64,000 bases of DNA from Gammaproteobacteria bacterium (lineage in GTDB: Bacteria; Pseudomonadota; Gammaproteobacteria; Pseudomonadales; Pseudohongiellaceae). The notes under the pieces were generated by a model. It was not told the DNA's origin. It made no database searches and saw only the letters and a program-made list of their open reading frames with translations. The stretch spans positions 37,980 to 101,979 of the forward strand of contig JAQWZF010000008.1 of assembly GCA_029253585.1 (NCBI GenBank), written 5' to 3'. A program made the translations under genes and the position numbers. Shown here one piece after another: positions 5,575 through 55,147 of the stretch. Positions within the stretch are counted from its first letter, which is position 1, and every line of letters begins with the position of its first letter.

Positions 5575-7116
5575 ATGGGTTTGTCTGCTTATGTGATCCT
5601 CGGGTATTTAGTGTTCTTCATCGCCGTGGGTATTTATATCAGTAGTGGCAATAGAAGTTCTGCCGACTGGGCAATAGGCGGAGGCACTCTGGGGGTAGGT
5701 ATGCTTGCGGCCGGCGTGGCTGGCACGCGCATCGGTGGCGCTGGAACCTATGGTGTGGCGGGCGATGTCATCAGCGAGGGCATTGGCCACCTCTGGTACG
5801 GAGTGAATTCATTCGCCGCCCTATTTCTGGTGGGGCTGTTCTTCGCAATCCCCTACCGCAAGCTCAAACTCTCCAGTGTGGGAGAAGTTTTCGATAGGCG
5901 CTTCGGCTCGCGCCGTTGTCAGTCTCTAACCAGCCTCTGTGTGCAGGCTGAGTATCTGGTCGTGAATATTATTGAGCCCTATGTTATCGCTACTATAGTT
6001 AGCGGTGTGACCGGCTGGCCGTTCTGGCTGTGTGTGATCATAGGTGGAATAGTGATTGTGCTGTTCACAGTAACCGGGGGTTTAAAGGGTACTGCCATAA
6101 CCAATATCGTGCATTGCACGGTGATTATCTTTGGCCTGGGTGCCGTTGGCTTTGTCGCTATGCAAAATCTGGGGGGCTGGGATTCTGTTGTCGCTCAGTC
6201 TGAGGTGATGCTGGCGGAGTCCGGTAAAGACATTCCCTCGTGGTGGAGTTTTACCGGCATAGGCTGGGCAACGATTATCGCCCTGTTCATATCTGCCACG
6301 ATTCACACACCGGCGGCTTCGGTGTATGCGAACTATGCGAGCTCGGCGGCGAAGCAGGAATATCTGATACCGGGCTTTTTTCTGGCCGGGGTAATTGCGG
6401 CCTTGATGCCATTAGTGGCAGGGTTTATCGGAATTCTTACCATGGTGAACTATGGTTCTGAGTCTGGACTCTCGGGCTATCTGAATATCGCGCAGCTTGC
6501 GATAGATACCGGGCCATTGCTTGGCGGTATAGCACTGGCAGCTGTCTTGGCGGCGGTAATATCTTCAGGTGCCCCAATTTTGCTGGCTAGCGCAACCATG
6601 TTGGTCAATGATTGGATACCGGCATCCAAAAATTACTCCAGCGACAAAAAGCTGCGTGCCTACAAGCTCGTCACTATTATCTATGGCTCCAGCGCCGCAT
6701 TCTGTGCCTGGTATTTTAATTTCGGTTCGGTCCTTCAGTTTCTGCTGCTCGGCTTCGCTATGGTGGTGCCGCCAGCGATTGCGGTGACCTATGTGTTCTA
6801 TTGGAAGAGAACCACTGAGCAGGCTGCATTCTGGGGAATATTGATTGGTTTTGTGGGGGGGCTTCTGATGTGGCTACTTAACAACGCATTTTCCGATGCA
6901 GATAATGCCGACGTCGGTGGTTTTGCCCAATACTGGTATGAACTCTGCCTGGCTCTTGGGGAATGGCGCGATCCGTCTTTTGTGACACTATTGTTGCCAC
7001 TATTTAGTATTCCACTGATCTCCATCTTGTTCCCGAACAAGGTGGATGATTCAGCGATGTCCGCTACCTTCTATGAAAAACTGGGCAGGATTCAACGTAA
7101 CTTTACCTGGGCTTAG
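5575..7116 (+). CDS. Sodium:solute symporter (SSS) family transporter
   Basis: 513 aa with about 13 hydrophobic helices. Gly-rich helices typical of the SSS family; AGGAG-like RBS (GAGTCGGAG) upstream. Confidence 0.75.
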   Translation: MGLSAYVILGYLVFFIAVGIYISSGNRSSADWAIGGGTLGVGMLAAGVAGTRIGGAGTYGVAGDVISEGIGHLWYGVNSFAALFLVGLFFAIPYRKLKLSSVGEVFDRRFGSRRCQSLTSLCVQAEYLVVNIIEPYVIATIVSGVTGWPFWLCVIIGGIVIVLFTVTGGLKGTAITNIVHCTVIIFGLGAVGFVAMQNLGGWDSVVAQSEVMLAESGKDIPSWWSFTGIGWATIIALFISATIHTPAASVYANYASSAAKQEYLIPGFFLAGVIAALMPLVAGFIGILTMVNYGSESGLSGYLNIAQLAIDTGPLLGGIALAAVLAAVISSGAPILLASATMLVNDWIPASKNYSSDKKLRAYKLVTIIYGSSAAFCAWYFNFGSVLQFLLLGFAMVVPPAIAVTYVFYWKRTTEQAAFWGILIGFVGGLLMWLLNNAFSDADNADVGGFAQYWYELCLALGEWRDPSFVTLLLPLFSIPLISILFPNKVDDSAMSATFYEKLGRIQRNFTWA

Positions 7117-50045: not shown

Positions 50046-50456
50046 ATGCTTATGATAAAAATTGCAGTAACTGAAGTCGAATTTGTTGCCATCCGTGCCA
50101 GCGGCCCCGGCGGACAAAATGTGAATAAAGTGTCGACTGCCGTACAGCTGAGATTCGATGTGCGCCGTTCCAGCCTGCCCCGCGAGATCAAAGAGCGGTT
50201 GTTAGCGCATGCCGATGCCCGTATAAACAGCGAGGGCTGTGTCGTGATAAGGGCACAACGCTTTAGAAGTCAGGAGAAGAACAAGCAAGATGCAATAGAG
50301 AGATTGCAGAATTTGATAGCAGCGGCAGCGCACGAGGACAAGAAGAGAATTGCGACCAGGCCGGGTAGGGCGTCGAAGGAGAGGCGCTTACTGCAGAAGA
50401 AGAAAACCGGCGATAAGAAAACGGGTAGGGGTTCCGTGCGTTCCTATGACCAATAG
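50046..50456 (+). CDS. arfB: Alternative ribosome-rescue factor ArfB (peptidyl-tRNA hydrolase, YaeJ-type)
   Basis: GGQ motif in RASGPGGQNVNKVSTAVQLRFD, plus a basic C-terminal tail (KKKTGDKKTGRG). Confidence 0.85.
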   Translation: MLMIKIAVTEVEFVAIRASGPGGQNVNKVSTAVQLRFDVRRSSLPREIKERLLAHADARINSEGCVVIRAQRFRSQEKNKQDAIERLQNLIAAAAHEDKKRIATRPGRASKERRLLQKKKTGDKKTGRGSVRSYDQ

Positions 50457-51425: not shown

Positions 51426-52610
51426 TTAGTAGACCTCGAACAGCCCAGCAGCACCCATGCCACCGCCAACACACATCGTGCAGACTACATACTTTGCGCC
51501 ACGACGCTTGCCTTCAATAAGCGCGTGTCCGACCATGCGTGCACCACTCATACCGTAGGGGTGGCCGATAGAGATGGCGCCACCGTTTACGTTGAGAAGT
51601 TCATTAGGTATGCCAAGCTTGTCACGGCAGTAAATAACCTGCACCGCGAATGCTTCGTTCAGCTCCCACAGGCCGATGTCATCCATCTTCAAGTTGTTGC
51701 GTTCTAACAGCTTGGGTATAGCGTAGATTGGGCCGATTCCCATCTCATCCGGGTCCAGACCTGCAACTGCCATGCCGCGGTAGGCGCCCAGGGGTTGTAG
51801 GCCTTTCTGCTCGGCTAGCTTGCTGTCCATAATCACAGAAGCCGATGCGCCATCTGATAATTGACTGGCGTTGCCTGCGGTGATTACGCCGCTATCGAAA
51901 ACCGGCTTCAAACCTTGCAGACCCTCGAGCGTAGTAGAGGGACGGTTGCCCTCATCTTTCTCTAGCTTGGTGTCGTGGACGCTTTGCTGTTTTGTTTCCT
52001 TGTCCATGAACAGCATCTTCGATGCCATAGGCACGATCTCGTCGTCGAAAGCGCCTTCCTGTTGTGCAGCCGCTGTGCGTTGCTGCGACTGAAACGCATA
52101 CTCGTCCATCTGATCGCGCGACACATTGTAGCGCTTGGCAACAATCTCGGCCGTCTCTAGCATAGACATATAGGCATGCTCAGATTTGGCAATCACGTTA
52201 GGATCCTGTGCGCGATAGGCATTGCGGTGCTCGTTCTGTACCAGGGAGATAGAGTCCAGACCACCACCGACAACGATGGGCATGCCGTCACTGATAACCT
52301 GCTTCGCGGCCGTGGCGATAGCCATCATGCCCGAGGCGCATTGGCGGTCCATGCTCATGCCAGCGACAGAACTTGGCAAACCGGCAGCAACTCCTGCCGT
52401 GCGTCCGATGTTATAACCGGAGGAACCTTGCTGCATCGCACAGCCTATTACCACATCATCTACTTCGCCCGGATCGATACCGGCACGTTCAACCGCTGCA
52501 GCAATTGCATGGCCTCCCAGAGTAGGGGCATCGGTGTCATTGAAGGCACCTCTATAAGCTTTGCCTATGGGAGTGCGTGCTGTTGATACAATTACTGCTT
52601 CTTTGGACAT
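51426..52610 (-). CDS. Acetyl-CoA C-acetyltransferase (thiolase II)
   Basis: MDRQCASGM active-site Cys, [21 protein letters not shown] and CVGGGMG. The ATG at 52610 follows GGAGA. Confidence 0.9.
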
Positions 52611-52687
52611 TCTATTCTCCATCTATAGTAAAAATTTGTGCGGACAGGCCGCAACAATCTTGAAACTCTAGTAAACTGCTCTTGAAA

Positions 52688-53215
52688 CTACTTCTTGCCA
52701 CAGATCAATGCGGTGACCGCCTCGATCGAATCTTCTGCCAGCTTCGCCATTTCCTCATTGGTGCGATCTTGAATGGGATGGGCGACGAACACGTTCAGAG
52801 GCGATATGCCCAGAGACTTGCCTTGGGCCGCGGCGGCATCGACAAATTCTTCCGATGCTACAAAGCCGGAAGGAACTCCTCTACTTTCTAAGTCCATGAT
52901 GTCATGCAAACTGCACGAGGTACATGAGCCTCAGTCGGCGAGTCCTTCGATTACTGCGTCACATTCGACGCTAATACGCTGTGTTAATTCCGTTGGCGCA
53001 ACCCGTGTGAAGGTTGGCTTGGAATAGCGTTTAACCTTGGCGCCGGCCTGTTCCAGGTGCTTCTGGACTTCGTCCAGAAATTCTTTGCCGCGGGGCTTGG
53101 AAATATCGAGCAGGCCGATAGTAGCGCCCGCAAGACTCGCTAGCCGTGGCAATAGCTGTCTTGCCGACGTCTGTAGCTCTGCTGTCGGATCCAGAAGGGT
53201 TGTTGGGCTTTGCAT
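52688..53215 (-). CDS. Candidate selenoprotein with U-G-S-C motif (TGA at 52931..52933 read as Sec); UGSC-type (seleno)protein
   Basis: ORF-track fragments 52931..53215 and 52688..52909 share one frame, separated by TGA plus 7 sense codons. Read-through gives ...ISVECDAVIEGLAD-U-GSCTSCSLHDIMDLESRG.... The ATG at 53215 has an AGAGGA RBS, while the downstream fragment has no ATG or RBS of its own. Confidence 0.65.
52902..52927 (-). promoter_or_regulatory. Candidate SECIS-like hairpin 3' of the in-frame UGA
   Basis: In the - strand RNA, UCAUGUA (52927..52921) pairs with UGCAUGA (52908..52902). That is 7 bp including one G.U, which would be a C.A mismatch on the other strand. The 12-nt apical region contains GU, and the stem begins 6 nt after the UGA. 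Confidence 0.35.
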
Positions 53216-53263: not shown

Positions 53264-54724
53264 TTACAACTTCGTTGATACGAGCTGGCTGCCGCGTTCT
53301 CCAGAGGCTACCCAGCCTCCGATGATGGCGGAAAACATTCCGGCTGTGCCACCGGTGGTAACGATGTGTAGTCCATCGTCGCGAAACTTGTTGAGTACCT
53401 TGTCTTTAAATTTTTCCGGCATGCCCTCCGCGATGTCATTTGCGCCGCGTACGATCTCAGTACCAGGTGTCATTAATTTTTCGTAGAGCGCCTTGCGTAA
53501 ATCTTCTTTATTCCAGCCGCCCTCGCGGAAGACGCGGCGGTGTTCCGGGCAGACGACTAGAATTGCGTCTGCCAGCCCAAATACTTTTGTGTGCGCTACG
53601 CTGCGCAGACTCATCGCCATGCTCTTTGCCAGAGACTGTGGCGTGCGTGATTGCTGATCGAGTATCGGTTGCAGGCCATCACCAGCGAAGAGACTGATCA
53701 CAGAATCCGCTCTATCGAAACCTCGGTCCATCGACAGGCTTGCCCAGTTTTCATCGCTTTCATCTTCGGCGAAACAGTAGGTATATTTCCCCGGGTTGCC
53801 CATATTCGCACGGTCGATGCCGCCAGGAACACCACCACCGACATTGCGAATAATCAATTGCAGTGCCCGGCCAATTGTCGCATTCGCTCTATTGCCTTGC
53901 CCTAATGCATTGATGCCAGAGTTCATGCCGATCTGTTTGACGACCGGCCCGCTTACCACCATGACAGGAGAGGAGAAATACGTTGTGCACAGCAGGCCAT
54001 GCATGCAGAAACGATCTTGCAATGCGGCCTCGACGCTGGCGATAACCACCGGAAAGTATTCCGGCTTGCAGCCAGCCATGACGGCATTGATTGCTATCTT
54101 CTCGATAGAGCAGGACACGTTGTCCGGTGGAACTTTACCGATAATTTCAGCGGCGTCTCGGTCGCTGCCGTTTAGCATTCGCATAACCCGCAGGGGTGTT
54201 GGAGGAACCACCGGCAGGCCATCGCTCCAGCCTCTGTCATAGCAGGCCTCCATGATATCTTCGGCCTCCGCCAATTCAACCGCGCGAGCCTGCAGGATCT
54301 GCTTGCCGAAGCGCAGGGCGAGTACTTCATTCATGCCGGGATCTTGTGTCTTGGATCCGCAGCCAGGTTTAAAGTCGATGAGCTCGGCACCGAGTGCTTC
54401 TATGCCGGTGAAGCTCTGCCACTGCTTCTTCTCCCAGCCGTAGATGCGGGACTCTTCGGATTGGGCATCGTTACCATCGCTTAGTCGTATAAGAGTAGGT
54501 ACTACCTCTATCTCCCGTTGGTAGGAATACTCCAGGCTAGAGTCATCGATGACATCATCTATGTCAGCCGGAAAAGACGGGTCATCCTGCACATACACTT
54601 TCAGCGAAAGAGTCTCGTTATTTGCTAATGAGTGGATCACGGGTTCGATGAGCGCGCAGGTCGGGCAGTCTTTCTTAACGACCAGCGCATAATGAGTTGT
54701 TTGGTTTGCGATTGCTTGGTTCAA
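53264..54724 (-). CDS. Thioredoxin-like (CPTC) N-terminal module fused to a large uncharacterised domain
   Basis: 486 aa. N-terminus is YALVVKKDCPTCALIEPVIHSL (Trx-fold CxxC). The remaining ~350 aa (GWSDGLPVVPPTP..., AINAVMAGCKPEYFP..., GNRANATIGRALQLIIRNVGGG) match no family I recognise. TTG start after AAGGAA. Confidence 0.7.
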   Translation of the reverse strand: MNQAIANQTTHYALVVKKDCPTCALIEPVIHSLANNETLSLKVYVQDDPSFPADIDDVIDDSSLEYSYQREIEVVPTLIRLSDGNDAQSEESRIYGWEKKQWQSFTGIEALGAELIDFKPGCGSKTQDPGMNEVLALRFGKQILQARAVELAEAEDIMEACYDRGWSDGLPVVPPTPLRVMRMLNGSDRDAAEIIGKVPPDNVSCSIEKIAINAVMAGCKPEYFPVVIASVEAALQDRFCMHGLLCTTYFSSPVMVVSGPVVKQIGMNSGINALGQGNRANATIGRALQLIIRNVGGGVPGGIDRANMGNPGKYTYCFAEDESDENWASLSMDRGFDRADSVISLFAGDGLQPILDQQSRTPQSLAKSMAMSLRSVAHTKVFGLADAILVVCPEHRRVFREGGWNKEDLRKALYEKLMTPGTEIVRGANDIAEGMPEKFKDKVLNKFRDDGLHIVTTGGTAGMFSAIIGGWVASGERGSQLVSTKL

Positions 54725-54802: not shown

Positions 54803-55147
54803 CTAGTAGATAAATCCTAGGGTAGAAATACCGATGAGGATGTTAATGATCATGAAAACCGAAGAGGTCCTGGACATGACCTTCCACAGCTGCGGCCCTT
54901 TATAAGCGGCTCTTACGCCAATTATGAGCACCACGGTATAGGCCATCATTGCACCCACCATGATCAAATAAGGTACCCAGCGTTGATCGTCCACAGCGCG
55001 AGAGCCAAATACGGCGAACAGGCCAGCACCGACAATATACAGGGCCCAGTATGTAATGGCGAGACCGTAGTCTCCCCCTAACATCTTGGCCAGAAGGGAC
55101 TTTTCGCCCTCTGAATCTCTATCTACTGTCTGTTCTACGTCACTCAT
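54803..55147 (-). CDS. Small membrane protein, unknown function
   Basis: 114 aa with 3-4 TM segments. Confidence 0.45.
   Translation of the reverse strand: MSDVEQTVDRDSEGEKSLLAKMLGGDYGLAITYWALYIVGAGLFAVFGSRAVDDQRWVPYLIMVGAMMAYTVVLIIGVRAAYKGPQLWKVMSRTSSVFMIINILIGISTLGFIY

Follow-up and report, generated by a model that had tools for sequence, protein, structure and literature searches.

A thioredoxin-linked uncatalogued domain as the near-obligate gene partner of the UGSC selenoprotein, and a possible selenocysteine-dependent oxidoreductase

A stretch of 64,000 nucleotides from a gammaproteobacterium of the Pseudohongiellaceae (assembly GCA_029253585.1, contig JAQWZF010000008.1; hereafter the window) was analysed around two adjacent genes on its minus strand. 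The first gene encodes a 486-aa protein in which a thioredoxin (Trx) fold is joined through a Pro-Gly-Cys-Gly (PGCG) linker to a large domain, termed X, and the second encodes a selenocysteine (Sec) protein of the UGSC family. Strong comparative evidence indicated that X and UGSC work together because they were paired across phyla whichever of the two was used as the starting point, and because the two were also found fused. Trx-X and UGSC may be the two subunits of one self-contained Sec-dependent oxidoreductase, a proposal judged to be evenly balanced; that the two proteins bind each other, which way the electrons run, in what order the relay proceeds and what reaction takes place were all inferred. 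The earlier note on this DNA had put the two genes forward as an undescribed system, and this claim was partly upheld: UGSC is already a named family (PF24696 and NF041046) and its fusion was noted in 2008, whereas X and the obligate pairing appear to be undescribed.

Pairing of domain X with UGSC across genomes

In the window, the UGSC start lies 48 nt downstream of the Trx-X stop on the same strand, the spacing given in the earlier note. The co-occurrence of UGSC with homologues of the 486-aa protein had been set beforehand as a test, and it was near-obligate both ways in many phyla. The X-seeded set comprised 81 loci, namely L001 and 80 loci from species genomes of about ten phyla. In 80 of the 81, the next gene downstream, on the same strand, was UGSC, and the exception was a 3.3-kb contig. 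The hosts of these loci were Gamma-, Alpha-, Beta- and Deltaproteobacteria, Chloroflexota, Actinomycetota, Acidobacteriota, Myxococcota and Spirochaetes, and the pair was carried mostly by aerobic aquatic and soil bacteria. For the UGSC-seeded set, 120 metagenome stretches were collected with a degenerate DNA pattern for D-U-G-S-C-T-S-C..HD. Nine of the first 80 loci were uninformative (contig ends), leaving 71, and X was found upstream on the same strand in 67 of these, with a gap of at most 196 nt in 64. Among the remaining stretches, X was present in 29 of the 39 having a UGSC match. The gaps between X and UGSC spanned 6-196 nt.

The two domains were also encoded in single genes. The UGSC domain was fused, in either order, in 23 of the 59 X representatives of at least 400 aa. 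Several UGSC/X fusion open reading frames (ORFs) begin or end exactly at the Sec position of UGSC and are therefore regarded as Sec-containing fusions clipped by gene callers. Moreover, stand-alone X genes adjoined UGSC in L082, L085, L208 and L209, sometimes in reversed order and with overlapping stop and start codons. The functional link that had been suggested between the CxxC protein and the selenoprotein was thus supported by the pairing counts and by the frequent fusions. Incidental synteny of two unrelated genes was effectively refuted by the same co-occurrence across phyla, the short gaps and the fusions in both orders, and its probability was regarded as negligible. The gene that follows the pair was heterogeneous between loci; hence, the X/UGSC pair is a self-contained module.

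The X family was large and varied in its architecture. An exhaustive HMMER scan for X returned at least 5684 clusters at 50% identity (E<=1e-3), 1324 of them at E<=1e-30, and relatives were confirmed in at least 590 GTDB species genomes. The architectures were Trx-PGCG-X, an AhpC/TSA-type CxxC domain-PGCG-X, stand-alone X of about 350 aa, X-X of about 715 aa, UGSC-X, X-UGSC, and UGSC-X with a ferredoxin-thioredoxin reductase (FTR) catalytic chain. The other Pfam domains in the 59 representatives were AhpC-TSA (8), Thioredoxin_8 (2) and FeThRed_B (2), and no non-redox Pfam domain was fused to X among them. The AhpC/TSA-type domains fused to X carry a CxxC motif like that of TlpA/ResA and have no peroxidatic Cys context.

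Several individual loci are recorded here. A UGSC gene with Sec was located behind a D-Ala-D-Ala dipeptidase gene in L094 (2577-3107) and behind ABC-transporter permease genes in L159 (187-723), and no X was found upstream of either within 2.9-4.5 kb. In L119, UGSC adjoins CoA-transferase and MaoC genes, and the approximately 700 nt available upstream contained no X. Two tandem X genes with overlapping stop and start codons were found in L210 (281-2490), and an X-X fusion of about 715 aa was found in L083 (6001-8154; P0170); the available sequence of both loci contained no UGSC.

The Trx-X protein, domain X and the selenocysteine sites

The TTG start of the 486-aa ORF is located 8-9 nt 3' of a Shine-Dalgarno-like AAGGAA. 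The blocks VVKKDCPTCALIEP, GWSDGLPVVPPTP, EKIAINAVMAGCKPEYFP, GNRANATIGRALQLIIRNVGGGVPGG and TTGGTAGMFSAIIGGW, quoted for this protein in the earlier note, were all found in its translation. The gene is real, as shown by over 8000 scored homologues and by the identical sequence already present in public data. The closest named relatives were from Pseudomonadales and Pseudohongiella metagenome-assembled genomes, and the public labels were only 'thioredoxin', 'thiol reductase thioredoxin' or 'hypothetical protein'. The coordinates of the genes, domains and motifs are given in Table 1.

Table 1. Positions of the two paired genes, their domains and motifs, and the neighbouring features in the window
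Feature	Position	Strand	Remarks
Trx-PGCG-X gene	53264..54724	-	486-aa ORF; TTG start, TAA stop
Thioredoxin-fold domain, residues ~10-106	54407..54697	-	Foldseek and AlphaFold2 model
CPTC redox motif, Cys20 and Cys23	54656..54667	-	Both Cys in 81/81 loci
Linker motif P-G-C-G	54356..54367	-	Cys122 codon 54359-54361
Domain X, residues ~141-486 (~345 aa)	53267..54304	-	Alpha/beta domain; alignments and AlphaFold2
UGSC-family selenoprotein gene, 175 aa including Sec95	52688..53215	-	PF24696 and NF041046
In-frame TGA, Sec95 codon	52931..52933	-	Readthrough product ...GLAD-U-GSCTSC...
Predicted SECIS-like hairpin, at or just after the UGA	52889..52933	-	Apical 7-bp stem, GUU loop
Acetyl-CoA C-acyltransferase (thiolase) gene	51426..52622	-	NF005494, 586 bits
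Weak terminator-like hairpin, UGSC stop to thiolase start	52639-52653	-	5-bp stem and T-run
114-aa predicted membrane ORF upstream of Trx-X	54803..55147	-	Lineage-specific neighbour

The structure of the 486-aa protein was modelled with AlphaFold2 from an alignment of 58 diverse sequences, with a predicted local distance difference test score (pLDDT) of 93.3 and a predicted template modelling score (pTM) of 0.82. The Trx-like CxxC segment claimed for the N-terminus was confirmed as a thioredoxin fold. It matched thioredoxins and StoA in Foldseek with a probability of 1.0 and template modelling (TM) scores, relative to the target, of 0.55-0.69, and this part of the model had a pLDDT of approximately 95. 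The match of this domain to Pfam Thioredoxin_2 was under the cut-off (E 0.02; 15.7 bits against 27), and the NCBIfam thioredoxin models gave no match to the 486-aa protein; the homologues P0129 and P0168 exceeded the AhpC-TSA threshold. The CxxC motif appeared as CPTC, CATC, CETC or CQTC among the 81 loci, and the cis-Pro loop E-x-V-P76-T was conserved in the Trx domain.

Domain X modelled alone had a pLDDT of 93.0 and a pTM of 0.92. The near-invariant residues in the alignments were D168, C219, R279, N281, R286, C317, E320, H395 and G458. D168 lies in GW[ST]DGLPVVPPT, C219 in NAVMAGC (codon 54068-54070; Cys in 80 of the 81 loci), R279, N281 and R286 in G-x-RANATIGRA, C317 and E320 in Y-x-[FY]-C-x-AE (C317 codon 53774-53776; Cys in 77 of the 81 loci), and H395 in PEH. 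The large domain had been described as fitting no family, and this held: 49 diverse X members had no match in Pfam or NCBIfam, or to the Grd/Prd models, even at E<=10. Sequence and profile searches of the PDB with X gave no match, and neither did a literature search for its motifs. The AlphaFold and Foldseek check that had been proposed for this domain matched no characterised non-redox family. Foldseek against the PDB, with the full-length and X-only models, returned only weak matches for X. The best were class I Fe-S fumarate hydratases, with E values of 6e-4 to 4e-3, TM-scores of 0.2-0.36 and root-mean-square deviations (rmsd) of 14-17 Å (6mso, E 6.4e-4; 6upo, E 9.2e-4, probability 0.84; the alpha subunit of the M. 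jannaschii enzyme, 7xky_A, TM to the target 0.36). The profile of X showed no significant similarity to the class I Fe-S hydro-lyases in hhalign against a small alignment of FumA, LmFH2 and TtdA (probability 0.3%, E 0.2), and such a relationship is retained as an alternative only. A fold similarity to Toblerone-fold cyclic amide hydrolases was rejected (Foldseek probability <=0.47, TM ~0.2). Hence, with no Pfam, NCBIfam or PDB match, weak Foldseek matches and a non-significant hhalign result, X is an uncatalogued domain without a convincing solved structural relative, and the models suggest that its fold is probably novel.

The UGSC gene starts with ATG at 53215, preceded by AAGAGGA, and stops with TAG at 52688. 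Its product was matched across the TGA by PF24696 (144.8 bits, cut-off 25) and NF041046 (145.4 bits, cut-off 125), and it is a full member of the already named UGSC family (seleno)protein. The motif in the window was U-G-S-C-T-S-C. The codon homologous to Sec95 was TGA in 77, TGC in 1 and TAG in 2 of 80 related loci; Sec was kept in 79 of the 80. The predicted hairpin resembling a selenocysteine insertion sequence (SECIS) had a minimum free energy of -16.6 kcal/mol (z -1.91), and 8 of 200 shuffles were equally good. An equivalent hairpin was found in nearly all Sec loci and was missing from the Cys locus L036. Cys-only versions were L036 and the natural fusions P0224 and P0240; P0260 is a further natural fusion.

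In two loci, L073 (7374-7871) and L079 (1680-2132), the UGSC Sec position was TAG, and both the frame and the hairpin were intact. L073 is from Geodermatophilus obscurus DSM 43162 (NZ_FRDM01000002.1). No tRNA-Sec was found within either locus. Natural recoding of UAG to Sec in Geodermatophilus and Blastococcus was reportedly described by Mukai et al. in 2016, and the TAG codons seen here would agree with it.

UGSC-containing proteins were first met in the Sargasso Sea and Global Ocean Sampling (GOS) surveys, and a redox or antioxidant role has been assumed for them (PMC2398784, PMC13188914). A total of 255 Sec UGSC sequences were counted in 37 GOS samples; the family was among the approximately five most abundant selenoprotein families of ocean and freshwater metagenomes and ranked first in several non-marine samples (PMC2398784). 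Its function was still listed as unknown in a 2026 review (PMC13188914). A fusion of UGSC to a domain named 'Unknown_1' was noted by Zhang & Gladyshev 2008 (PMC2398784), and this domain is probably X. The present results agree with the published family in that the window gene is a full member and that UGSC-X and X-UGSC fusions occur here as well. The published work presents UGSC as uncharacterised and probably a redox protein of Trx-like fold. It lacks the near-obligate operon partner X, the Trx-PGCG-X architecture, the Cys/Sec pair at position 122 and the relationship to GrdB, and no description of any of these four was found in the literature.

A second Sec site was indicated in the linker of Trx-X. 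The motif [R/K]-P-G-C122-G sits in a well-ordered linker of the AlphaFold2 model. Residue 122 was Cys in 78 of the 81 loci, and in the other three its codon, roughly 360 nt from the start of Trx-X, was an in-frame TGA. These three were Burkholderiales or Betaproteobacteria metagenome-assembled genomes (L030, L035 and L050, with gene starts at 6001, 5029 and 6001, respectively). A TGA at position 122 was also found in an independent metagenome contig (L101, minus strand, around 5300). In all four loci, a conserved Trx part lies 5' and X lies 3' in the same frame, and a hairpin with a G-rich loop is located 15-20 nt downstream of the TGA. Gene callers split the Trx-X gene at this codon. The PG-U-GS form of Trx-X had no match among the NCBIfam (seleno)protein models, and it may be a candidate additional selenoprotein form, possibly unlisted. 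Replacement between Cys and Sec is a recognised mark of a catalytic redox Cys. The Cys/Sec pair at position 122 therefore suggests that Cys122 is redox-active.

The Sec machinery adjoined the pair in part of the loci. The selA and selB genes were found beside X/UGSC in seven loci and tRNA-Sec (anticodon TCA) in four, namely L042 (8309-8404), L062 (5827-5922), L070 (5847-5942) and L074 (2698-2793). Compact Sec islands, with selA, selB and tRNA-Sec between them, were recorded in L013, L015, L017, L025, L042, L062, L070 and L074. The position of these genes next to the pair suggests that the pair is a principal reason for Sec use in such genomes. No tRNA-Sec, selA or selB was found within the 64-kb window, and neither was a tRNA gene of any kind.

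A possible reductase mechanism and its alternatives

Diverse UGSC members were compared with the models of selenoprotein B from the glycine, sarcosine, betaine and proline reductases. Fifteen of 17 matched TIGR01917 GrdB (best E 3.1e-5), 13 matched GrdF, 6 matched TIGR01918 (generic selenoprotein B) and 5 matched GrdH, and all matches centred on the Sec motif. GrdB bears U-x-x-C-x-x-C (PMC13188914). Because of the matches around Sec and this shared pattern, UGSC is a distant stand-alone homologue of the Sec (UxxCxxC) region of selenoprotein B, not a member of that family. The likeness to glycine and proline reductases suggested in the earlier note was therefore right as regards a real local homology, but the relative is selenoprotein B and not the small carrier GrdA. 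A UGSC profile search of the PDB returned no solved GrdB/PrdB relative.

The protein B systems (GrdB/F/H with GrdE/G/I, and PrdB with PrdA) share several features with the X/UGSC pair. A Sec UxxCxxC module, homologous to UGSC, operates together with a larger partner that binds the substrate; a thioredoxin/dithiol system restores the oxidised selenium centre; and the thiolase-fold enzyme adjoining the pair in the clade of the window recalls GrdC/D. The differences are also clear. GrdB has about 430 aa, whereas UGSC has about 175 aa and represents only the Sec region. The partner X has no similarity to the GrdE/PrdA pyruvoyl proproteins, the Trx module is fused to X here, and no GrdA turned up at the pair, although no GrdA-specific search was made. 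Unlike GrdC/D, the window thiolase is an ordinary acetyl-CoA C-acyltransferase that is not conserved beside the pair. Finally, the Grd/Prd hosts are Stickland fermenters, in contrast to the mostly aerobic hosts of X/UGSC.

Reductases with a fused Trx-fold recycling domain provide a second comparison, and they include the Trx-MsrA/MsrB fusions and the TlpA/ResA-type CxxC domains. In these enzymes, as in Trx-X, an N-terminal CxxC Trx fold is placed on a catalytic domain with a Cys or Sec that is oxidised in each turnover, and X homologues exchange the Trx part for AhpC/TSA-family CxxC domains. However, X is unrelated to known reductases, and a Cys/Sec linker and a separate selenoprotein are interposed here.

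Taken as an oxidoreductase, the module would work as follows. In an X+UGSC core, catalysis or substrate binding would fall to X, with a putative pocket built from C219, C317, H395, D168, E320 and the Arg/Asn cluster R279/N281/R286. This pocket would be suitable for an anionic small molecule, for instance a carboxylate. On the model of GrdB and PrdB, the UGSC selenolate may attack the substrate bound to X, and UGSC would end the turnover as a Sec95-Cys98 selenenylsulfide. It would then be re-reduced by a relay from Cys122 (Sec in some bacteria) to the fused CPTC pair and to the cellular reductant. In other lineages, an AhpC/TSA-type CxxC domain or an FTR-like Fe-S domain would recycle UGSC. Since these modules replace Trx, electrons would enter the module, which argues for a reductase.

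Several observations weigh against this mechanism. Four of the 71 informative UGSC-seeded loci had no adjacent X. Neither the Trx domain nor Cys122 is present in stand-alone X proteins, and the Trx/Cys122 relay would thus be an add-on to an X+UGSC core. The X-X fusions and tandem X genes have no UGSC nearby (L083 and L210), and X may act as a (hetero)dimer that is able to exist without a neighbouring UGSC. The similarity to GrdB is local, covering about 40 residues in the window UGSC, and lies far under the family cut-offs (11.6 bits against 602 for selenoprotein B). No pyruvoyl subunit of the GrdE/PrdA type is present, and X shows no cofactor-binding or redox signature except two conserved Cys and one His.

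The foremost alternative is a very remote kinship of X with the catalytic domain of the class I (Fe-S) fumarate/tartrate hydro-lyases. In this reading, an Fe-S cluster would be held by C219, C317 and one further ligand, either Cys122 or a Cys/Sec of UGSC. The cluster would act on a di- or tricarboxylate or an acyl-CoA as a Lewis acid, or take part in disulfide/selenenylsulfide chemistry similar to that of FTR or heterodisulfide reductase. Class I fumarate hydratases were the only consistent PDB matches of X in Foldseek, and by reading, AGC-x-PEY and Y-C-F-A-E of X resemble AAC-PPY and S-C-S-A-D of FumA, with the two Cys separated by 98 residues in X and 94 in FumA. Moreover, genes for TctC (which binds tricarboxylates), family III CoA-transferases and MaoC hydratases recur beside the pair, and the Fe-S FTR catalytic chain occurs as a fusion partner in two X representatives. 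The likeness to the alpha domain of class I fumarate hydratase and L-tartrate dehydratase is one of weak best matches, two-Cys motifs and spacing. These points are opposed by the low TM-scores (at most 0.36), the large rmsd and the non-significant hhalign result given above. The core of X has just two conserved Cys as possible [4Fe-4S] ligands, C219 and C317; C122 is conserved only in the Trx-linked subfamily, and its segment is missing in stand-alone X. The fumarate hydratase signatures CQDTG and KGGGSANK are missing from X, and no Fe-S assembly genes were found nearby. This alternative was considered unlikely.

Ranked behind it, and also doubtful, is a general role in antioxidant defence or thiol-disulfide exchange, such as the reduction of peroxides, sulfoxides or protein disulfides. 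The chemistry would then be performed by UGSC and the Trx domain, and X would mainly provide a scaffold or specificity. All domains fused to X are Trx-fold or thiol-redox domains, the AhpC/TSA family included, MsrA is one of the downstream neighbours, and the aerobic habit of most hosts and the role assumed for UGSC in both published accounts would agree with such a function. Yet no other part is as large or as well conserved as X, whose invariant D168, R279, N281, R286, E320 and H395 are typical of a small-molecule active site. The TlpA/ResA-like character of the AhpC/TSA-type domains also counts against it, and the smallest unit that is conserved comprises X and UGSC rather than Trx and UGSC.

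It is far less probable that the module handles selenium or sulfur itself, through selenide or persulfide delivery or detoxification tied to the Sec machinery. The placing of selA, selB and tRNA-Sec directly beside the pair was seen in several Actinomycetota and Proteobacteria, and X had faint Foldseek matches to selenophosphate synthetase and HypE (PurM-like; probability 0.2-0.47). However, the SelD-like matches were at chance level, most loci, the window included, have no sel genes or tRNA-Sec nearby, and Cys-only versions exist. In addition, sel genes often cluster with the main selenoprotein gene of a genome, and no functional link is needed for this.

The oxidoreductase proposal may be extended, more tentatively, to a class of enzyme. 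X+UGSC would then be an unrecognised class of Sec-dependent reductase, in which a GrdB-like selenol module is combined with a catalytic subunit of novel fold and a Trx/Cys(Sec)122 arm, and in which this subunit replaces the pyruvoyl subunit of the Stickland enzymes. Such a reductase would cleave its substrate reductively, this being a carboxylate or a metabolite linked to CoA, and its hosts would be aerobic bacteria of the sea, fresh water and soil. This wider reading is possible and falls short of an even chance.

Neighbouring genes and significance of the pair

The thiolase gene adjoins the UGSC gene in the window, as reported earlier; the gap is 65 or 77 nt, depending on the choice of ATG. 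It was found beside the pair only in L001-L008 and L128 and was rejected as a core component. The thiolase, from which a link to acyl-CoA metabolism had been drawn by neighbourhood only, represents lineage-specific synteny among close relatives. Terminator-like sites such as that between UGSC and the thiolase are no more frequent than chance in the region. The predicted 114-aa membrane ORF gave tblastn matches only in L001-L008 and no match in Pfam or NCBIfam. A conserved third gene beside the pair was likewise rejected, since the downstream neighbours were heterogeneous, and the HhH-GPD, MaoC, SDR and hydrolase clusters near the pair were regarded as clade-specific synteny. A 136-aa ORF at 50046-50456 (plus strand) has a GGQ motif (GPGGQNVNKV) and is unrelated to the X/UGSC pair; the L001 homologue matches the Pfam RF-1 domain, so an ArfB-like peptidyl-tRNA hydrolase is indicated.

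Within about 2 kb in 209 loci, the raw counts, taken with no background control, were 12 for CoA_transf_3, 10 for MaoC, 9 for thiolase and 8 for TctC. A carboxylate or an acyl-CoA-linked compound as the substrate is a weak lead. The gene order was X - CoA_transf_3 - UGSC - TctC - CoA_transf_3 - UGSC - X in L085 (623-6744), IclR - X - UGSC - CoA_transf_3 in L208 (2147-5104) and MaoC - UGSC - X in L082 (476-2634). The acyl-CoA and organic-acid genes interleaved with stand-alone X in these three loci are possible clues to the substrate.

The analysis also revealed faults of annotation: X is labelled 'thioredoxin', and UGSC, the UGSC-X fusions and the Sec122 forms are split at UGA. Through its pairing with X, UGSC is no longer an orphan redox protein but one half of a defined candidate enzyme of two subunits, and the function of this abundant aquatic selenoprotein is now directly testable. 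The candidate key residues are Sec95, Cys98 and Cys101 of UGSC and Cys122 (Sec in some), C219, C317 and H395 of Trx-X, and the pair is carried by a cultured organism, Geodermatophilus obscurus DSM 43162. If X+UGSC is indeed an unrecognised class of reductase, this would explain the high abundance of UGSC in aquatic metagenomes.

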